DNA from: Minisyncoccia bacterium
Lineage (GTDB): Bacteria; Patescibacteriota; Minisyncoccia; Phycocordibacterales; Phycocordibacteraceae
Direction: 5' to 3'
DNA: 64,000 bases
Assembly: GCA_050011835.1 (NCBI GenBank)
Contig: JBEKII010000002.1
Span: forward strand, 76,173-140,172
In this document: positions 11,123-59,205 of the stretch, one piece after another
How the letters are laid out: every line of letters starts with the position of its first letter
How positions within the stretch are numbered: the stretch's first letter is position 1
Program-made: the position numbers and the translations under genes
The notes under the pieces: generated by a model
The model's input: the letters and a program-made list of their open reading frames with translations, nothing else
Told to the model about the DNA's origin: nothing
The model's database searches: none

Positions 11123-11599
11123 ATGTACAACAATCGTTTCCGGGGCTTCACTCTTATAGAATTACTCGTCGTAATCGCCATCATCGGCATCCTTTCGGCG
11201 GTCGTGCTCGCGTCCTTGAATACCGCTCGTTCTAAGGGCAATGACGCAGCCATCCAATTGGACCTTGCGACCATTCAGACCCAGGCGGAAATTTATTATG
11301 GGAATAATTCGAACAAGTACAACTCGGACGGTACGACTGGCGTTGCTGGTATCGCTTGCCCGGGAGTCGGTACCGCCACGCTCTTTGGCGATACGACCAT
11401 CGCGAATGCAATCAATGGCGTAAAGACTGCCAGCAGCGGTAACGTTGCATATTGCTATGCGGCTGCCAATGGGTCTGCCTATGCTGTTCAGGCGCCACTG
11501 AAGACCAATTCATCACTTTATTGGTGCGTTGACAGTACCGGGGTTGCTTCCTCAACCGCTGTTCAATTCTCCGGCGCTACGACTAAGTGCGGTACATAG
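11123..11599 (+). CDS. pilA: Type IV pilin (prepilin), paralog 1
   Basis: N-terminal RGFTLIELLVVIAIIGILSAVVLASLNTARSKGNDAAIQ, the class III signal and methylation motif. C-terminal Cys pair. Confidence 0.85.
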   Translation: MYNNRFRGFTLIELLVVIAIIGILSAVVLASLNTARSKGNDAAIQLDLATIQTQAEIYYGNNSNKYNSDGTTGVAGIACPGVGTATLFGDTTIANAINGVKTASSGNVAYCYAAANGSAYAVQAPLKTNSSLYWCVDSTGVASSTAVQFSGATTKCGT

Positions 11600-11613
11600 T
11601 TTTAACCGTGTAA

Positions 11614-12156
11614 TTGAATATGATTCCTATTCGCTTTCGCGGCTTCACCCTTATTGAATTACTCGTCGTAATCGCCATCATCGGCATCCTCTCGGCGGTC
11701 GTGCTCGCGTCCTTGAATACTGCCCGCTCAAAGGGTAACGATGCGGCTATCCAGTCCGACCTCAACACCGTTCAAACTGAAGCCGAAATAGCGTATGGCG
11801 GAGGCGGTACAGCAGGTCTCACCAATACGTACAATTCCACTGGCTCGGCCGTCTCGAGCTCCGCCTGTTCTGGAGTTACGACAGCAGGAACTATTTTCGC
11901 AGACACGACAATTCAGAACGCATTGAAGGGCGCAAAGAGCGCCGCAGGAGGCAGCAACGACAGCGACTGCGGCATTACCAGTACTGGTGGTGCGTATTCC
12001 ATTGCGGCGCCACTTGTGTCAGGTAAGGCGTGGTGCATTGACTCAACGGGTGTGGCTCGCGGTGCAACAGTTAACGGTCTCCCATATACAGCACTCATAG
12101 GTACGGTTGCAGCCGGTGGTGCCCATATCACAAGTGGGCAAACAACCTGCAATTGA
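11614..12156 (+). CDS. pilA: Type IV pilin, paralog 2
   Basis: Same N-terminal ~40 aa. The first ~90 nt of DNA are nearly identical to paralog 1. Confidence 0.85.
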   Translation: MNMIPIRFRGFTLIELLVVIAIIGILSAVVLASLNTARSKGNDAAIQSDLNTVQTEAEIAYGGGGTAGLTNTYNSTGSAVSSSACSGVTTAGTIFADTTIQNALKGAKSAAGGSNDSDCGITSTGGAYSIAAPLVSGKAWCIDSTGVARGATVNGLPYTALIGTVAAGGAHITSGQTTCN

Positions 12157-12198
12157 ATTAGCCCATAAATCAGAAGCTCTCTTCTGGTTAGAGGAAAA

Positions 12199-12237
12199 GA
12201 AATCCACTGTTCCTAACTGTGGATTTCTTTTTTTTGG
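12199..12237 (+). terminator. Rho-independent terminator between pilin 2 and pilin 3
   Basis: aaatccactgt-tcctaa-ctgtggattt followed by a T9 run. Confidence 0.55.
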
Positions 12238-12255
12238 TGTTATACCTATAAGCAT

Positions 12256-12765
12256 ATGAATCCAAAAAATAAGAACCAGGGCTTCACCCTTATTGAATTA
12301 CTCGTCGTAATCGCCATCATCGGCATCCTCTCGGCGGTCGTGCTCGCGTCCTTGAACACCGCTCGTTCTAAGGGTGGCGATGCTGCAATTCAGTCCGATC
12401 TCAATACAATCCGGATAGAAGCAGAGATTTTCTATGGGAGCAACACTAATTCCTATAACACGGGCTCAACCCTCGCATACAGTAATTGTTCAACGCATAC
12501 AGATGCTGGTTCAATTCTCGCTGACACAACCATCCAAAACGCCCTTAAAGGTGCAAAAAATACTTCAGGCAGTGATAGCGACTGCGGTATAACTTCTACA
12601 GCGTATTCCATTGCGGCGCCACTTGTGTCAGGTAAGGCGTGGTGCATTGACTCAACGGGTGTGGCTCGCAATTCAACCGCCAACGGTCTCCCATATACAG
12701 CACTCATAGGTACGGTTGCAGCCGGTGGTGCCCATATCACAAGTGGGCAAACAACCTGCAATTAA
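12256..12765 (+). CDS. pilA: Type IV pilin, paralog 3
   Basis: Same prepilin N-terminus. The C-terminal ~60 aa are nearly identical to paralog 2 (AYSIAAPLVSGKAWCIDSTGVAR...GQTTCN). Confidence 0.85.
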   Translation: MNPKNKNQGFTLIELLVVIAIIGILSAVVLASLNTARSKGGDAAIQSDLNTIRIEAEIFYGSNTNSYNTGSTLAYSNCSTHTDAGSILADTTIQNALKGAKNTSGSDSDCGITSTAYSIAAPLVSGKAWCIDSTGVARNSTANGLPYTALIGTVAAGGAHITSGQTTCN

Positions 12766-12791
12766 TTTAATAATAGTTTAATATAAATATT

Positions 12792-13250
12792 ATGATATAT
12801 AAATATAACAATCGCGCTTTCACCCTTATTGAATTACTCGTCGTAATCGCCATCATCGGCATCCTCTCGGCGGTCGTGCTCGCATCGCTGAATGCCGCTC
12901 GCTCAAAAGGCAGTGATGCGGCTATTCAGTCAGATCTGGATGGCATCCGAACACAAGCCCAGATCTATTACGGCAATAATGGCAGCAGTTACGGTTCGAA
13001 TGCCGCTGTAGAAAGCAATTGTAGCGCGACCGATAATATGTTCAGCGACCCAACAATCACAAAACAAGTGCAAGGAGCAGATACGGCAAATGGTCCCTCC
13101 GGTTCTGTAGTGTGCAACGTAGCTGCCTCTGGTACGGCTTATGCGGTGTCAGCAGACCTTGTCGCGACACCCGGAACGTATTATTGCGTTGACAGTACCG
13201 GCGTGAGCACGACAACGACAACGGCTCTGGACACCAACACAAATTGCTAA
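12792..13250 (+). CDS. pilA: Type IV pilin, paralog 4
   Basis: Same prepilin N-terminus, with a divergent C-terminal domain. Confidence 0.85.
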   Translation: MIYKYNNRAFTLIELLVVIAIIGILSAVVLASLNAARSKGSDAAIQSDLDGIRTQAQIYYGNNGSSYGSNAAVESNCSATDNMFSDPTITKQVQGADTANGPSGSVVCNVAASGTAYAVSADLVATPGTYYCVDSTGVSTTTTTALDTNTNC

Positions 13251-21421: not shown

Positions 21422-21492
21422 CGCGGGGTAGAGGAGAGGTACCTCGGGAGGCCCATAACCTCCAGACGCCGGTTCGATTCCGGCCCCCGCAA
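21422..21492 (+). tRNA. tRNA-Met(CAU)
   Basis: Acceptor CGCGGGG/CCCCGCA with a C1:A72 mismatch. T8A9. D-stem GAGG/CCTC. Anticodon stem GGAGG/CCTCC with loop CCCATAA. T-arm GCCGG-TTCGATT-CCGGC. Confidence 0.75.
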
Positions 21493-21575
21493 CACGGTTG
21501 TGAGTCAGTGTCAAGTACCGCCCCGCACCAGAAGTTTTGAAAAGTTGATACAGTACCGATAGGCATGAAGCTCCG
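21488..21575 (+). repeat. att-like core CAACACGGTTGTGA plus ~80-nt tail, copy 1; overlaps the tRNA-Met 3' end
   Basis: The same core and a related tail (..CAGTACCG..GTACTGTACCGA..) recur at 32572 and 34618. Degenerate cores occur at 24752 and 35848. Confidence 0.6.
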
Positions 21576-24689: not shown

Positions 24690-24770
24690 GGCGTCGGAAT
24701 CGAACTAAAAGTTCAAGCATCTAGGCCATAGAAAGTCCAGTTCGATTATGGACCCGGCAACAAGGTCAGA
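24690..24770. repeat. Island junction: two oppositely oriented tRNA-3'-end-like fragments, a 30-mer repeat, and a degenerate att core
   Basis: Minus strand: GTTCGATTCCGACGCCCATCA. Plus strand: AAGTCCAGTTCGATTATGGACCCGGCAACA, identical to 34595-34624, followed by aggtcagactg (degenerate CAACACGGTTGTGA). Confidence 0.55.
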
Positions 24771-26267
24771 CTGTCCAGCACGGAAGTCCTTAGATAGCTT
24801 GAATATGGGCGACAAAACAGCGGTGCCAAACAATCCGGTGGTTTTGTCGTACACGATGCCCTCTGGTAGCACCAATTTCTGCAATCGTTGCTTCTTTGCA
24901 GGGTTCGTTAGATCGAGCCACTGACGCGCCACATCGCGCACAAATTGCGTTCCATAGGCCAGTTGTATCTCAAGGTCTGCTTCGCTCGTCTGTGCCTCGT
25001 TCTTGGCGATTCTAAGCCCTGTGAGCTGGTTATCTAGCGAATCACGCATCTCGGTATATTCTTCTTTAGAAATCTCTTGGTTAACGCGCATAGTCAGTAG
25101 TCGTCGCTTCTGATTCTCCAAGTTGCCCAATCGGACGGCATAATGCTGTTTCTCCTGTCCCGCGCTTGTCTTGCGAGAGCGTATCTCGTCGAGCATCACT
25201 TGTTCAAACATACTGACAAACTTCTCGGTAGGCGTAATCCGCTTTAGGTAACCGTAGAACTTCTTTTCCAAAATATCCTTGGCGATATTATCTCTGTTGG
25301 TACAGGCCGAATTGTGGCAACGATAGTAGGGGTACTTTTTACCACTACGGCCTGTCTGCCAACTCGCGGTCATGAAAGATCCACAGGTACAGCGAATAGC
25401 CCCGCGTAACGGGAAATCGGGATGGTGTTTAAGGCGGAAACTGGTCGCGTTATTTGATAACCCGCGCTTCACGTTCTGAATGGCCCCGTATTCTTCAAGC
25501 GTAATCATCGGCTTGTGCAGTCCTCGATGTTCGTCGCCGCTCCACGGGTCAGTAAGGACTCCGGCATAGAACTTGTTTGTAAGTATTACGTTCCAGAGCT
25601 GTTTGCTCATCGGCTTACCGGTTCGCGTTTGTAAACCCCATTTATTACTCTCCTCGGCCAGTTGCGTGATGGTGTGCTGTCCGCCAGTATAAAGGCGTAA
25701 ACCCTTTTGAATGAGATAGAAACGCTCCTCATCTGGTTGATCCGGTAGAAGCTTGCGACGCTCCACTCTGTTCTTTGAGTTCGTATATCCTATTGGCGGC
25801 ATCCATGGCGAAATGCCATCGCGCAGACGCGCCCGCATACCGCCCTCGCATCGTTGCTTGCGTATATCGTTTTCAAATTGAGCATATCCGGCTAGCATCG
25901 CCTCAAGCATTTTTCCTACAGGCCCCTCGCTGATTATTTCTTCCGTAACTGAATGTAGAGAAGTGCCGTACTTGAGCAGTTGCGCTTGTAGCCCATAGTG
26001 GTCGGTCATGTTGCGAGCGAAGCGGTCGAGCTTCCAGACAATGAAGGCCTTTATCTCGTCCTTATGTTCCTTGCAGTAGTCGAGTGCCTTGATGAGTTCG
26101 GTGCGATTCGCGGCAGTAGCCGATTCGCCGCGCTCAATGAAAATCTTTGCCACCTTTAAGCCCTTATTTTCGGCATACTCTATACACGCACGCTCTTGGC
26201 TCTCCAAACTGGTGCCGTGGAGCTGGTCGTTAGAAGATACTCGACAGTATATGATTCCTTGGTTCAT
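24705..26267 (-). CDS. Large serine recombinase (integrase)
   Basis: 520 aa. N-terminal resolvase catalytic domain IYCRVSSNDQ...S...R, a recombinase domain, and a Cys-rich zinc-ribbon region (CTCGSF...CHNSAC). Its 3' end overlaps the 30-mer repeat. Confidence 0.85.
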   Translation of the reverse strand: MNQGIIYCRVSSNDQLHGTSLESQERACIEYAENKGLKVAKIFIERGESATAANRTELIKALDYCKEHKDEIKAFIVWKLDRFARNMTDHYGLQAQLLKYGTSLHSVTEEIISEGPVGKMLEAMLAGYAQFENDIRKQRCEGGMRARLRDGISPWMPPIGYTNSKNRVERRKLLPDQPDEERFYLIQKGLRLYTGGQHTITQLAEESNKWGLQTRTGKPMSKQLWNVILTNKFYAGVLTDPWSGDEHRGLHKPMITLEEYGAIQNVKRGLSNNATSFRLKHHPDFPLRGAIRCTCGSFMTASWQTGRSGKKYPYYRCHNSACTNRDNIAKDILEKKFYGYLKRITPTEKFVSMFEQVMLDEIRSRKTSAGQEKQHYAVRLGNLENQKRRLLTMRVNQEISKEEYTEMRDSLDNQLTGLRIAKNEAQTSEADLEIQLAYGTQFVRDVARQWLDLTNPAKKQRLQKLVLPEGIVYDKTTGLFGTAVLSPIFKLSKDFRAGQSDLVAGSIIELDFLWPRCLNF

Positions 26268-52402: not shown

Positions 52403-52763
52403 GAAGTTTCGTTCTCTCATTTCTCTCTCCTTCCTTTGGTTGGGGGTTAACGAGATGAATTGTACCCCGACTCTCATTCGCTGCTTTTTCGGATCGAGGC
52501 ATTCTTACTCTCCCTCCGCATTTCGTGCATATCTCGTAGCGACGACCATCGGCAAGCTTTCCATCTTGGCCTTGGTTACCGGAGATAGGCGTCCTCCCGT
52601 CCTGGCATTCCTCACAGTCCACTACCACGTCCCGGTCTCCCACTTTTTCCTCTCCTTTCTTTACCGAAATGAACAACGATAGCCCGATGTCCGGGCCGAC
52701 TTCCGAGAATGACACTAACAAAAATGTTAATGAAACGCAATTAAGGAGTATACTTTCTTTCAT
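52368..52763 (-). CDS. Small secreted protein with a CxxC...CxxC zinc ribbon (doubtful)
   Basis: Starts at MKESILL. Overlaps the pyrF 5' end and has a start codon back-to-back with smpB. Confidence 0.25.
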   Translation of the reverse strand: MKESILLNCVSLTFLLVSFSEVGPDIGLSLFISVKKGEEKVGDRDVVVDCEECQDGRTPISGNQGQDGKLADGRRYEICTKCGGRVRMPRSEKAANESRGTIHLVNPQPKEGERNERTKLHGNVESPVGKK

Positions 52764-53205
52764 GGTCCTCGTTGAATACAAAAAGGCCTTTCTCAAATAC
52801 GCGCCACTTGAAAGTTTCACGACTGGTATTGAATTGCTTGGCCAAGAGGTAAAAGCGCTGCGGAATAAACTCGGTTCTCTGGATGGCTCGCGCGTGGTGG
52901 TGCGCGGCGGTGAGGCGTTCATTGTTGGTATGACTATTCCGCCATATCAAGTGGCGAACATGCCGAAGAATTATGATAAAGAACGAGCGCGGCGGCTCTT
53001 GCTCACTAAAAAAGAAATCTCTCAACTTGCCGATGCGGAATCTAAGAAGGGATTGACAATTATCCCACTTGAGGTGTATACTGCGGGCAGATTCGTGAAA
53101 GTGCGCATCGCCGTCGTTCGTGGTAAAGGGAAAGCCGACCGCCGCGAAGATTTAAAAAAGCGCGATGCTCTGCGCGAAACGGAACGCGTTTTGAAAACCA
53201 GATAA
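52762..53205 (+). CDS. smpB: SsrA-binding protein SmpB
   Basis: Start at MVLVEYKKAF. SmpB core and basic C-terminal tail. tmRNA lies immediately downstream. Confidence 0.85.
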   Translation: MVLVEYKKAFLKYAPLESFTTGIELLGQEVKALRNKLGSLDGSRVVVRGGEAFIVGMTIPPYQVANMPKNYDKERARRLLLTKKEISQLADAESKKGLTIIPLEVYTAGRFVKVRIAVVRGKGKADRREDLKKRDALRETERVLKTR

Positions 53206-53254: not shown

Positions 53255-53677
53255 GGGGGTGACCGGCTTTGACGGTCTGTTCTTTGAAAGACGTGCGGCG
53301 CAGTGCACTCCCGTTCACCACTTAAAACTGGCGGGAAACAAACTTGCCAAGAACACTCTTGCAAGCGCGAAGTCGCCTTACTTCGGTAAGGTCGGCGATA
53401 TCGCGTTCGCCTACGCGACGGCTCGCGGTTAACGCCACGACCCTTCTCGCCTAGCGCGACGTTTGTCCTCTAACGGTGCTCACAGCGCGAGGACGGGCGG
53501 AATTTTCTGTGAAATCGATGCCCGGAATCCCGACCGGCACATTTAAATAAGGGATCGGGCAGGAATGGTTTCGTTGGTGTTCCTCACATCCTGCCTTAAA
53601 ATTAACGCTGACTATGCGTCGTAGAAACGCTTTCATCAACTGACTCGGACCGGGGTTCAATTCCCCGCACCTCCACA
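53255..53677 (+). ncRNA. ssrA: tmRNA (SsrA)
   Basis: 5' end GGGGGTGACCGGCTTTGACGG. 3' tRNA-like end GGACCGGGGTTCAATTCCCCGCACCTCCA. Extended -10 tgcgTATAAT at 53240-53248. Confidence 0.8.
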
Positions 53678-55692: not shown

Positions 55693-55766
55693 CCGCCCCT
55701 AGCTTAATTGGTTAAAGCCCCGAGCTTATACCTCGGTGAGTCTTGGTTCAAGTCCAAGGGGGCGGA
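55693..55766 (+). tRNA. tRNA-Ile(UAU)
   Basis: Cloverleaf CCGCCCC-TA-GCTT..AAGC-C-CCGAG-CTTATAC-CTCGG-TGAGT-CTTGG-TTCAAGT-CCAAG-GGGGCGG-A. Anticodon TAT. Confidence 0.8.
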
Positions 55767-55776
55767 CTAAATAAAT

Positions 55777-56292
55777 ATGATCACTCCTGGCCAAGAAAAA
55801 TATCTTGCAACTCTGCCGAACGGAAGAATTGCCCACGTAAAACCCTTTGATCCTTTGGCTCGAGAAACAGGACTTGCTCTCGTTGCTGAAATTAAAAAGG
55901 CTTTACCCGAGGTAGCGATTTATTATATCGGCTCTTCTGTACTAGGTATTGCTGGCGAAAATGATATAGATATCAGTATCATAAGCGCAGGATTATTCGG
56001 AACGGAATTATCCGCGTTAGAAAGTTTGTATGACAAACCAACAAGTTATAAGCCCGATAAAAAACGAGCAGAGTGGAAATTTGAGAGAAATAATTTTCCT
56101 GTTGAACTTTATTTCAAAGGAGAAATGACGCCGCTTTTTGCTGAACAACTAAAAACGCACGAAATTCTTAAGCGTTCTCCTGTATTGGCAAAAGAGTATG
56201 AACAAATAAAACTTGCCGCCGGCGGATTAAATTGGAAAGATTATATGCGCCGGAAATACGAATTCTTCAATAGAATCTCTGGCGCGAATTAA
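55777..56292 (+). CDS. GrpB/UPF0157-like nucleotidyltransferase-fold protein
   Basis: 171 aa. IYYIGSSVLGIAGENDIDISI resembles the GrpB IEHIGSTSVPGL..DIDI stretch. Confidence 0.5.
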   Translation: MITPGQEKYLATLPNGRIAHVKPFDPLARETGLALVAEIKKALPEVAIYYIGSSVLGIAGENDIDISIISAGLFGTELSALESLYDKPTSYKPDKKRAEWKFERNNFPVELYFKGEMTPLFAEQLKTHEILKRSPVLAKEYEQIKLAAGGLNWKDYMRRKYEFFNRISGAN

Positions 56293-56439
56293 AATTTTGC
56301 TCAGAGCTATTACAAATGCATCTCTTCGCCGATCTTACGTTCGAGTCGTGGTGGGCGCACAAATTAAGAGAGGTAACCTTATATTTCTTTGTGAGGTATA
56401 ATTATTTTAGAGAGCCAGAAAACCTTGAGGAGGTGGAAA

Positions 56440-56622
56440 ATGAAGAAGAAAGTCAGTTGTGAACTAACGCAGGAAGTGGGCGAAAGGGAGGAAAAAAAGA
56501 ATTCGGAAGCTCTTGAGCACCTGACACCATCTCCGAAGTTGAATAAAATAATAGAGGAGGAGCTTGACCCGAGTGGTGTAGGAGTGAACGAACTTTCAAG
56601 ATTACTGGAAAGGTTGAATTAG
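56440..56622 (+). CDS. Small Lys/Glu-rich protein (module 1)
   Basis: ATG 7 nt after the gaggaggtgg RBS. 60 aa. Confidence 0.4.
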   Translation: MKKKVSCELTQEVGEREEKKNSEALEHLTPSPKLNKIIEEELDPSGVGVNELSRLLERLN

Positions 56623-56649
56623 ATTAGAAAGGTCACAGGGGGGGGAATA

Positions 56650-56673
56650 AGAGGGGCCGGCCCCTCTTTTTTA
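56650..56673 (+). terminator. Rho-independent terminator (module 1)
   Basis: gaggggcc-ggcccctc followed by tttttt. Confidence 0.6.
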
Positions 56674-56803
56674 TTCCAGACGCATCTCTTCGCTGACTTT
56701 ACGTTCGAGTCATGCTAGACGCATCTTAAGGTTTTGATGTATAATTAACTCCAGCTAGAGAATCTTTAGAGTACTGTTCCTTGAGGGAGGAGGTGAAAGT
56801 AAA

Positions 56804-57001
56804 ATGGATAAAGAGATCAGTCATGGATCAATGGAAGAAGTGTTAAGAAATGCGTTGACTAACCCAAAGCATTTCGAAGGTGGTAATCCTCTACCAACAC
56901 CACTTTCAGAACTAAATGCACAAATAAAAAAGTATGACCCGGATGGTAAAAAGGCACTCGAGATAGTAAGGAACATGCGTAAGAAAAAGAAGAAAAAATA
57001 G
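56804..57001 (+). CDS. Small Lys-rich protein (module 2), weakly homologous to the module 1 ORF
   Basis: RBS ggaggaggtgaaag. 65 aa ending in K6. Shares TPSPKLNKIIEE ~ TPLSELNAQIKK with the module 1 ORF. Confidence 0.4.
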   Translation: MDKEISHGSMEEVLRNALTNPKHFEGGNPLPTPLSELNAQIKKYDPDGKKALEIVRNMRKKKKKK

Positions 57002-57017
57002 TTACAGATGTAATGAT

Positions 57018-57045
57018 GAGGGGACTTGCTCCCCTCTCTTTATTC
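57018..57045. terminator. Bidirectional terminator (module 2 / recG)
   Basis: gaggggacttgctcccctc. Confidence 0.55.
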
Positions 57046-59205
57046 CAGATGCATTTCTTCGCTGGCGGAACGGGAGCGGAGAAGAAGCGCGGGATGATTT
57101 TTTAGTTCGGGGTCGGCGGCGACCAGAGTCGCCGCTTCAGTACGGGCGGCTTCAACGAGTTTAATATTTTTTAATGCTTCCATCGCGATATCCGAAACGC
57201 CCCACTGTTTGCCGCCCGCGAGCTCGCCCGCGCCGCGAAGCGCGAGGTCATATTCGGCGAGCTCAAATCCATTTTTTGCGGAAGTGAATGCTTTCATCCG
57301 TCCGCGCGTCATTTCGCCGAACGATTCGGGAAATGCGAAGCAGTACGACTGATACGTTGAACGGAGAACGCGCCCGCGTAGCTGATGCAGCTGCGCGAGC
57401 CCGAAGCGCTCGGCGCCTTCAATAAGGATGACAGTCGCGTTCGGAACATTGACACCCACTTCAATGACGGACGTTGCGACGAGAATATCTATGTTTCCAT
57501 TTTCAAAATCCCTCATCGTGTTTTCCTTTTCTGCTGGCCGCATTTTGCTGTGGAGAATGCCTATAGTCGCTTCGGGGAAGATACTTTTTTTCAAACGAGC
57601 TGCCTCAGCCTTAACCGATTTCGCCTGGAGCGCAAGCTCTTTCGCAGGGTCCGGTTCATCAATGCGCGGGCAGATGATATATGCCTGATGGCCGGCGGAT
57701 AATTCGACGCGAATGCGCTCATATGCGCGTTCTCGCTCCTTTGGTCCGAGCACTTCAGTTATGACTTTTTTCCTGCCCGCGGGCATTTCATCAAGAAGCG
57801 TGAGATCAAGGTCGCCATAAATGGTGAGCGCGAGCGTGCGCGGAATGGGCGTCGCCGTCATTGAAAGCAGGTGCGGCGCCACTCCTCCTTTCGTTGCGAG
57901 TTTTTGCCGATGTATGGTGCCGAAACGGTGTTGCTCGTCAATGATGGCATACGCGAGGTATTTGAACGAAAGCGATTTCTCAATGAGCGCGTGCGTGCCG
58001 ATGACAATGGGAATTTCGCCATTCGCTACCATTTTCTTAAATGCCGTTTTGGAAAGTTTCGCGGATTCTTCGTAACGGACTCGGGAAGGAAATTTTCGGC
58101 ATTCGCTCCCGGTGATGAGACCGATGGGGATGGGATGGTCGCGGAAATATGAGACGAAAGTGGAAAAATGTTGTTTTGCGAGGACCTCGGTCGGGCAAAG
58201 ATACGCAACTTGAAGTGTTCCTGCGATTCTCTCGAAAGGAAGTGATGTCGCAACAAGATACGCCGTCGCAGCTGCAACGGCGGTCTTGCCGCTTCCCACA
58301 TCGCCTTCAAGAAGGCGCAGCATCGGGTGCGTTTTTTCGAAATCAGCGACGATTGTCTCAATTGCGCGCGTCTGCGCGGAGGTCGCGGGGAAGGGGAATG
58401 ACGCGACGAAATCGGAGAGCGCCTCGCGGTCAATCGTAACTGACAATGCCTTCTGCGCCGCGAGGACGCGGCGCCGTCCTTGCATTATGACCTGGAGTGC
58501 GAAAACCTCTTCAAAGGCAAAACGTTTGCGCGCCGCAGTCGCATCGGATATTTTCTGCGGCGCATGTATAAAAACGAGTGCAGAGGCGAGTACGGGCAAG
58601 TTATAACGCGCGAGAATTTCCGGCGGGATAGGATCTTCAAAATGCTCGTGTGCTTTTGCCTCAATTATTTTTCTGATGGCATGCAAAAACCATAAAGAAG
58701 AAATTCCCTGACTTTCCGAATAGATCGGGTACACCGCCTCTTCTTTTTGCGCTCCTCTTTTTATAAAGAGGGAGTTATGTACGGATTCAGGAACAACGGG
58801 TGATTTATCGATAGACGGATTCGCGAGGTACACTTTTACTCCTGTTCCTACCACTTTTCCGCTTACTTTCACCACCATTCCGTCATATAAGGTCTTCGCG
58901 ATATATGGCTGGGAGAACCATATCATTTTTATTTTTCCCGACGCATCTTCCAGCCACGCCTCGGCAATCGGTCGGCGACTCTTCCAGGTTTTACGAATAT
59001 CGGGCTTGCGCACCGTTCCGTAAAGCGTTACATCGCCTCCGACTGTCGTGCCGGCAATCGTCCCTGTTGCGCCGGCCTGTTCGTATCGGGCGGGGAAATG
59101 GTAGAGCAAATCACGAATCGTCCGTATCTTCAGCTTATGCAGAGCGCGCTTCTGTTCAGGTTTTAGGCGAGTGAAATGCTTATCAACAAGGTCCTCGGGC
59201 TGCAT
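57040..59205 (-). CDS. recG: ATP-dependent DNA helicase RecG
   Basis: 721 aa. Wedge domain and SF2 helicase motifs (GDVGSGKT, DEQHRFG). Confidence 0.9.
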   Translation of the reverse strand: MQPEDLVDKHFTRLKPEQKRALHKLKIRTIRDLLYHFPARYEQAGATGTIAGTTVGGDVTLYGTVRKPDIRKTWKSRRPIAEAWLEDASGKIKMIWFSQPYIAKTLYDGMVVKVSGKVVGTGVKVYLANPSIDKSPVVPESVHNSLFIKRGAQKEEAVYPIYSESQGISSLWFLHAIRKIIEAKAHEHFEDPIPPEILARYNLPVLASALVFIHAPQKISDATAARKRFAFEEVFALQVIMQGRRRVLAAQKALSVTIDREALSDFVASFPFPATSAQTRAIETIVADFEKTHPMLRLLEGDVGSGKTAVAAATAYLVATSLPFERIAGTLQVAYLCPTEVLAKQHFSTFVSYFRDHPIPIGLITGSECRKFPSRVRYEESAKLSKTAFKKMVANGEIPIVIGTHALIEKSLSFKYLAYAIIDEQHRFGTIHRQKLATKGGVAPHLLSMTATPIPRTLALTIYGDLDLTLLDEMPAGRKKVITEVLGPKERERAYERIRVELSAGHQAYIICPRIDEPDPAKELALQAKSVKAEAARLKKSIFPEATIGILHSKMRPAEKENTMRDFENGNIDILVATSVIEVGVNVPNATVILIEGAERFGLAQLHQLRGRVLRSTYQSYCFAFPESFGEMTRGRMKAFTSAKNGFELAEYDLALRGAGELAGGKQWGVSDIAMEALKNIKLVEAARTEAATLVAADPELKNHPALLLRSRSASEEMHLE

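Follow-up and report, generated by a model that had tools for sequence, protein, structure and literature searches.

The DNA analyzed here is a 64,000-nt stretch of contig JBEKII010000002.1 (called the window in the following, all coordinates being positions within it) from an uncultured Patescibacteria host of the Candidate Phyla Radiation (CPR). Downstream of its intact recG helicase gene two small gene modules follow one another, and copies of the recG 3′ end accompany them; these repeats and the two modules are real. Along the plus strand the order is tRNA-Ile, GrpB, J1, cassette 1, J2, cassette 2 and recG. J1 and J2 are composite junctions at the promoter-side end of each cassette, in which the last ~26 nt of a recG gene are joined to the final ~24 nt of a tRNA-Ile gene. 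The features of the locus, including the two open reading frames (ORFs), are as follows:

55693–55767 (+): resident tRNA-Ile(UAU), conserved left anchor of the variable slot (ARAGORN; Rfam tRNA, 64.6 bits)
55777–56292 (+): GrpB-family gene, cargo of low guanine-plus-cytosine (GC) content (Pfam GrpB, 1.1e-08)
56310–56336 (−): left part of J1, relic of the recG 3′ end, reading ...KIGEEMHL-stop, GAA mutated to TAA
56337–56360 (+): right part of J1, putatively foreign 24-nt tRNA-Ile 3′ fragment (T-arm and acceptor 3′ strand)
56397–56402 (+): −10 box TATAAT of module 1 (from the sequence; repeat D8 pairs the −10 boxes of both modules)
56429–56435 (+): ribosome-binding site GGAGGTG of ORF1 (from the sequence)
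56440–56622 (+): ORF1, 60 amino acids (aa), orphan, possibly a divergent member of the ORF2 family
about 56649–56673 (+): hairpin terminator of module 1 (fold z=−2.6 against shuffled sequence)
56671–56698 (−): left part of J2, relic of the recG 3′ end, reading ...KVSEEMRLE-stop, CAT mutated to CGT, 24/27 against the true end
56701–56724 (+): right part of J2, decayed tRNA-Ile 3′ fragment, 19/24 against the J1 fragment
56716–56745 (+): promoter-like site of module 2, TAGACG, 18-nt spacer and TATAAT (56740–56745)
56789–56795 (+): ribosome-binding site GGAGGTG of ORF2 (from the sequence)
56804–57001 (+): ORF2, 65 aa, member of a rare ~60-aa Paceibacterota family (NPKxFEGG ... YDPDGKKA..LAKKYR)
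57018–57036 (+): hairpin terminator of module 2, abutting the recG stop codon (fold z=−2.2 against shuffled sequence)
57040–57065 (−): true recG terminus (SEEMHLE-stop), putative target block of recombination whose synonymous sites are unusually conserved across the clade
57040–59205 (−): recG helicase gene, intact (Pfam RecG_wedge, DEAD, Helicase_C, RecG_dom3_C)

Each cassette of ~365 bp is a complete unit with its own promoter, Shine–Dalgarno (SD) sequence, small ORF and terminator. The initial annotation had described modules of ~360 bp, each starting with a copy of the recG 3′ end and carrying TATAAT, GGAGGTG, an ORF of 60–65 aa and a GC hairpin. All of these features are present; the copies, however, start at 56310 and 56671 and not at 56322 and 56688. 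The island from 55777 to 57040 has a GC content of ~40% (38–41% in the GrpB segment) compared with ~53% in its flanks. The identical arrangement was assembled in six contigs from independent samples and with independent assemblers (JGI, ENA, Logan), and the assembled contigs display this one layout only.

A repeat search of the region returned a family of three 26-nt copies (D2) at 56306, 56670 and 57039, which are spaced by 364 and 369 nt and share 77–92% identity, and a 52-nt pair (D1) at 56308 and 56672 with 81% identity. On the minus strand the true RecG protein ends with ...SASEEMHLE-stop, and the in-frame ends of the two copies read RLERKIGEEMHL-stop (from 56310) and LERKVSEEMRLE-stop (from 56671). 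Each relic has suffered one decay mutation in the otherwise invariant EMHLE-stop motif (first relic, GAA to TAA; second relic, CAT to CGT). The end of recG was first reported to be duplicated over its last ~30 nt; that it recurs is correct, but only ~26 nt are common with the true end. The two copies share 52 nt with one another because each also holds the ~24-nt 3′ fragment of a tRNA-Ile.

The tRNA part of J1 (ACGTTCGAGTCGTGGTGGGCGCAC) is identical in all 24 positions to the T-arm and the acceptor 3′ end of tRNA-Ile(UAU) in the relative L058, and it agrees with the resident tRNA-Ile in only 15 of 24 positions, the differences in the T-stem being compensatory. The best match of the corresponding part of J2 is the tRNA-Ile of L063 (21/27), shuffled queries reaching at most 19/27. 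By its sequence the J1 tRNA part is a foreign allele. On the plus strand both junctions consist of the reverse-complemented recG end followed by the 3′ part of the tRNA, whereas in the empty site the order is the opposite, the 3′ end of the tRNA abutting the recG stop codon. Since the order of the relics is reversed, the locus is to be read as a head-to-tail series of units, each made up of tRNA-Ile 3′ part, cargo and recG end, and for the same reason we rejected a contiguous attachment (att) block of tRNA plus flank. Neither does the locus show the arrangement of a tRNA-targeting island, in which a partial 3′ tRNA lies as att repeat distal to the intact tRNA, because the fragments belong to a foreign allele that would mismatch the resident acceptor stem and are located after, not before, the recG-end relic.

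A comparison of the two junctions with the true recG end around the core ATGCRT is instructive. To the left of the core J1 and J2 are the same and both differ from recG (GAG versus GAA, then the tRNA arm); to the right of it recG and J2 are the same (CTGGAATAAA and the hairpin) and J1 differs (TTG..TAG, then the GrpB flank). This pattern is the expected product of two successive crossovers inside the block, with two related cassettes arriving where GrpB adjoined recG. The junctions are 81% identical, whereas the cassette bodies are only weakly alike (z=5.8 for DNA, z=2.1 for protein). As J1 and J2 share an identical joint, the junction would have arisen once and travels with the cassettes. Folding of J1 and J2 on both strands gave z values of −0.4, 0.0, +0.3 and −1.5, that is no hairpin similar to attC. 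Within the 64-kb window no other duplication of a gene end was found, only repeats of pilin-like paralogues.

We compared the locus with 80 Kaiserbacteria-like Paceibacteria genomes which were fetched through RecG out of 291 relatives. The order recG, tRNA-Ile(UAU), ftsH is kept in all relatives examined (~80), the recG stop codon and ftsH being 89 nt to more than 5 kb apart and the orientation of the tRNA gene being variable. The cargo of this slot differs in nearly every species, so the slot is hypervariable; it includes NUDIX hydrolases, methyltransferases, dihydroorotate dehydrogenase-like proteins, a helix–turn–helix (HTH) protein, DUF805, a two-component kinase and one large serine recombinase. 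GrpB occupies the slot in the species of the window only and had no tblastn match in the 80 relatives. Likewise, the regions downstream of recG in 157 loci contained no homologues of ORF1 or ORF2.

When each genome's own recG end was used as query on both strands of the window and the 80 relatives, a threshold of at least 20/27 gave eight downstream matches on the same strand and none on the opposite strand; at least 15/18 gave seven and none. A second copy of the own recG terminus is present in six of the 80 relatives (L024, L030, L032, L040, L055 and L064), 524–1342 nt downstream. All six copies lie directly behind cargo unrelated to each other (NUDIX with aldolase, a ParE-like pair, NUDIX, DUF805 and unknown proteins) and are followed by the ancestral neighbor, the tRNA. 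In two cases the direct repeats are perfect (L040, 30/30; L055, 29/29). The right boundary of the repeat is the stop codon in 7/7 cases including the window; the left boundary lies 20–70 nt upstream, the common minimum being the last ~19–20 nt. Seven joints all within 75 nt of the recG end would be extremely unlikely if joints were spread evenly over the 2.1-kb gene, and we therefore conclude that the process is tied to the recG terminus. No such duplicates were found in 77 more distant metagenome loci with a recG ending in HFE-stop. A scan of viral contigs for the terminal block gave 26 matches, roughly the chance level by our estimate, none of them in a recG-like context. The comparison of the region downstream of recG which had been proposed as a check revealed no single conserved gene; instead the cargo varies.

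Several further peculiarities were noticed in the slot. In L020, L027 and L028 the tRNA-Ile gene is flanked by a copy of its own 5′ half on one side and of its own 3′ half on the other, and L024, L030, L044 and L068 have one partial-tRNA duplicate each, which suggests recombination in the tRNA itself. In L055 an 11-mer resembling a T-loop upstream of the distal recG-end copy was considered as a second composite junction, yet Rfam gave no support. L016 contains a perfect 44-nt direct repeat at +34 and +137 after the recG stop codon, 103 nt apart. Directly beside the tRNA-Ile, on the tRNA–ftsH side, 11 relatives (among them L019, L036, L046, L048, L008 and L023) encode a protein of 217–242 aa with an N-terminal HTH_23 domain which is absent from the window.

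The block at the end of recG, which contains the palindrome ATGCAT, forms a stretch of nearly universal identity between species. Of 62 recG genes of the clade, 57 have CAT as their last His codon, whereas 12 of 13 other conserved His columns favor CAC. TTG serves as the last Leu codon in 72% of the 62 genes compared with 8% TTG elsewhere, the other conserved Leu columns favoring CTC. Since these terminal codons are not the preferred ones, ATGCATTTGGA (57040–57057 in the window; recG ends of L007–L086) is conserved not only in protein but also in DNA sequence. The codon usage indicates a constraint that acts on the DNA or the RNA.

Relatives of the small proteins were not found in a word-indexed search. 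An exhaustive profile search did recover proteins of 58–62 aa, and the follow-up gave ~20 members with the motifs NPKxFEGG and YDPDGKKA..LAKKYR (P0003, P0004, P0006 and P0010–P0024). ORF2 has both motifs and shares 38–52% identity with most of the members; judged by these motifs it is clearly a member of this rare ~60-aa Paceibacterota family. ORF1 is at best a divergent relative, having 25–31% identity with DP.G and few other positions in common (z=2.1 against shuffles). The assumption of one small-protein family receives partial support, ORF2 being a clear member and ORF1 only weakly similar; the weak similarity of the two ORFs (27–31% identity) is as originally stated. The search elsewhere, also set as a check, located the family at unrelated loci in other Paceibacterota; in three genomes, for example, the gene lies between comEC and an RNase H gene, and in other cases it adjoins def or a HicAB pair. 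Each family gene has its own SD sequence and terminator, and often a second, unrelated small ORF lies alongside. In none of the members' loci examined did the gene adjoin recG or tRNA-Ile as expected for a donor.

No Pfam family covers the small proteins. We considered a modifier of the UBact/Pup type and rejected it, the best Pfam UBact score being 17.2 bits over a short stretch against a cut-off of 27.8. The AlphaFold2 model of ORF2 consists of three helices (mean predicted local distance difference test score, pLDDT, 77), for which Foldseek found no match in the PDB. On this model we treat the small proteins as probable charged three-helix accessory cargo. Within the family, P0020 (L172, 4001–4219) contains the motif DPxGxKA...KKYR twice owing to an internal duplication. 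In L168 a 30-nt direct repeat (25/30) extends from the HicA stop codon (3610), recurs 1.35 kb downstream (4963) and brackets P0004 together with a racemase gene; it may be another scar of a gene end or arise by chance in AT-rich DNA.

Among the called genes within ±10 kb of the cassettes there is neither a recombinase nor intI, and a motif scan, which is of low sensitivity, detected no tyrosine recombinase in the window. The cassettes and the six other repeat-flanked inserts contain no recombinase either. The sole recombinase of the window is a large serine recombinase (24705–26267, minus strand; Resolvase, Recombinase and Zn_ribbon_recom domains) 30 kb away from the cassettes. It lies ~3 kb from tRNA-Met (21422–21493) and probably marks a separate integrated element. 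Large serine recombinases leave no long repeats. Among the 110 cargo proteins of the slot one is a recombinase, a 539-aa large serine enzyme in L031 (9704–11320, plus strand) whose ORF runs into the tRNA and which is part of a 4.8-kb insert between recG and tRNA-Ile. As this insert lacks a recG-end repeat, the slot is used by another kind of element as well. A link of the cassettes to large serine recombinases is not supported, the enzyme of the window being distant and 26% identical to that of L031.

With moderate confidence we interpret the modules as horizontally acquired small-gene cassettes which accumulated serially between the convergent tRNA-Ile(UAU) and recG genes, a conserved hot spot of insertion. 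Serial insertion of small cassettes at a fixed site, as had been proposed at the outset, fits the hypervariable slot in ~80 relatives and the six recG-end duplicates behind unrelated cargo, and we count both for serial horizontal insertion. The repeat boundaries, the foreign J1 tRNA allele, the variant pattern around the ATGCRT core, the contrast between well-conserved junctions and weakly similar cassette bodies, the low GC content, the occurrence of the ORF2 family at unrelated loci, the DNA-level conservation of the terminal recG codons and the lack of a linked recombinase count for our reading as well. Each unit would once have occupied the tRNA-Ile/recG slot of a different genome. The first junction, and with it the duplicated recG end, could go back to a rare illegitimate insertion facilitated by homology; deletions on the opposite side would hit the adjacent tRNA-Ile, which is presumably essential, so that only duplications would survive. 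The units would then have been added and passed between genomes by homologous recombination after DNA uptake, with recG as the long arm and the terminal block of ~20–27 nt, ATGCAT(T/C)TGGARTAR, nearly identical across species, as the short arm. A dedicated recombinase would not be needed. ComEC competence genes are present on related contigs. Homology-facilitated illegitimate recombination in natural transformation is known from Acinetobacter and S. pneumoniae; it is usually reported with deletion and not with duplication of recipient DNA, and we know of no demonstration in CPR bacteria. It resembles the present case in having one homologous anchor (here recG) and an illegitimate joint close by without requiring enzymes of mobile elements. 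The variable left boundary and the lack of relation among the cargos follow from it, though by itself it does not account for the identical joint of J1 and J2.

Several points weigh against this interpretation. Among the loci examined we did not find a donor genome with the predicted layout tRNA-Ile, ORF1/ORF2, recG, and exact look-ups of ORF2 and GrpB revealed no strain variants missing one or both cassettes. The common joint of J1 and J2 calls for a cassette family carrying J or for a local duplication. That all seven duplicates comprise at most 75 nt and share a core of ~20 nt fits a site-specific recombinase equally well, and recombination through 20–30 nt of homology is inefficient.

A serious alternative, if in our estimation an unlikely one, is that the cassettes are non-autonomous and depend for their movement on a site-specific recombinase that acts in trans, much like integrons, pdif modules or cis-mobilizable elements (CIMEs), J being the attachment site of the cassette and the recG block the chromosomal site. 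The common core placed exactly at the gene end in seven genomes would be well explained, as would junctions that are better conserved than the cargo and a core which is conserved at the DNA level and holds the ATGCAT palindrome. Moreover, the hot spot also contains the half-tRNA duplicates and, in L031, the serine recombinase element. Yet 0/7 repeat-flanked inserts contain a recombinase, no tyrosine recombinase was seen within ±10 kb or, by motif scan, in the window, and the only recombinase of the window is distant and of the type leaving no long repeats. The cargos have no common backbone, the repeat length varies and the junctions are devoid of attC-like hairpins.

Similarly improbable, and less likely than serial acquisition, is a purely local tandem duplication with subsequent divergence. 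According to this model the segment between the tRNA T-arm and recG position −27 was duplicated in an ancestor with the order tRNA-Ile, small gene, recG, whereby J arose as the novel joint; unequal crossing-over amplified the unit, the copies diverged to ORF1 and ORF2, and a foreign tRNA–GrpB segment later replaced the tRNA and the proximal unit. The collinear units of equal length (364 and 369 bp) and the common joint agree with it. So do the module bodies, which are more alike than shuffled sequence (z=5.8), and ORF1 and ORF2, which align with the positions M.K..S, EV, P.P..LN and DP.G in common. However, it is the non-coding junctions (81%) that are far better conserved than the coding bodies, and after such divergence the J1 tRNA part would hardly still match a living tRNA allele in 24/24 positions. 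In addition the model requires an extra replacement event for GrpB and the mismatched resident tRNA, and it cannot account for the six genomes in which a recG-end duplicate flanks unduplicated, unrelated cargo.

More doubtful still is the idea that the cassettes are CPR micro-elements of an undescribed, integrase-less kind with the fused recG and tRNA-Ile ends as attachment site, which insert serially at the recG terminus by means of a trans-acting host recombinase and thus turn the end of a housekeeping gene into an integron-like platform. If this were true, the homogenization of the last recG codons at the DNA level across species would find an explanation in repeated integration as well.

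Insertion of a transposon with target-site duplication, the latter also suggested in the initial annotation, is largely refuted and very improbable. Direct repeats of the target sequence do flank the inserts, two of them perfect. Known bacterial target-site duplications, though, are much shorter than the 20–70 nt of variable length seen here; there is no transposase and no convincing terminal inverted repeat, a single 12-nt inverted pair being at chance level, and the repeats of the window include a tRNA fragment, which is not target sequence. Finally, one Logan assembly breaks its contigs at J1, but an artefact of metagenome assembly stringing strain variants together was rejected as hardly credible because six contigs of independent origin have the same layout, because the joint of J occurs in neither recG nor tRNA and must be present in the reads, and because J1 and J2 are diverged copies.

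With regard to known systems, integron arrays also consist of serial small cassettes in the same orientation at one fixed site with diverse cargo including toxin–antitoxin-like genes; they possess intI, attI and attC hairpins, and their mostly promoterless cassettes depend on the common promoter Pc. The present array is similar in its serial small cassettes of one orientation, its fixed site and its diverse cargo. There is, however, no intI (within ±10 kb), attI or attC hairpin, every cassette has its own promoter and terminator, and the repeat derives from the end of a host gene, which led us to reject the integron-type reading suggested initially.

The closest resemblance is to the way in which integrative and conjugative elements (ICEs), integrative and mobilizable elements (IMEs) and CIMEs accrete in tandem at the 3′ terminus of housekeeping genes or of tRNA genes in streptococci (PMC5704250; Pavlovic 2004 and Bellanger 2011, both as cited in PMC5704250). 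There, too, a conserved gene remains intact with arrays of elements at its 3′ end, individual members may consist of cargo alone and lack an integrase, and newcomers insert at the att copy next to the gene (PMC5704250). As in these arrays, each element is flanked by direct repeats that include the target gene's 3′ end, and recG is intact. The differences are the unit size of ~365 bp, the lack of an integrase in seven repeat-flanked inserts, repeats of 20–70 nt and the CPR host; furthermore the repeats of the window are composite recG/tRNA junctions in the order of head-to-tail unit joints and not a contiguous att block. The tycheposons of Prochlorococcus are several kb in size, encode tyrosine recombinases and have partial tRNAs as their only repeats (10.1101/2020.12.28.424599). 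They likewise use a conserved island site next to a tRNA gene, where partial tRNAs mark successive integrations pushing older ones inward, integrase-less remnants occur and the cargo consists of adaptive accessory genes (10.1101/2020.12.28.424599). In contrast to them the recurring repeat here is a protein-coding gene's end, with no recombinase linked to it. The best reading is that the recG cassettes resemble the tandem accretion of cargo-only islands and are neither integron nor transposon.

CPR bacteria have tiny genomes with few recognizable mobile elements, and how they gain accessory genes is poorly understood. The slot between recG and tRNA-Ile is a concrete, testable example of such gain, in which cargo turns over in nearly every species and about one genome in ten keeps scars marking where recombination happened. 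The finding extends beyond one genome and yet is a variation on a known theme, that is a hot spot with att-like scars. If DNA uptake and short conserved homology were all that is needed, this would be a general low-cost route of gene gain in streamlined genomes; if a recombinase were involved, a new cassette system would be defined. In either case a ~60-aa protein family without a name has been put on the map.

Two other features of the window may be mentioned. Between smpB (~52669–53205) and ftsH lies a gene for transfer-messenger RNA (53255–53676) with the tag AKSPYFGKVGDIAFAYATARG-stop, which is an ordinary feature. At 11134–12940 four tandem genes have a common 5′ region of ~100–125 nt with 88–96% identity; together with a 163-nt repeat at 11992 and 12601 this looks like a tandem array of paralogues, possibly pilin-like.

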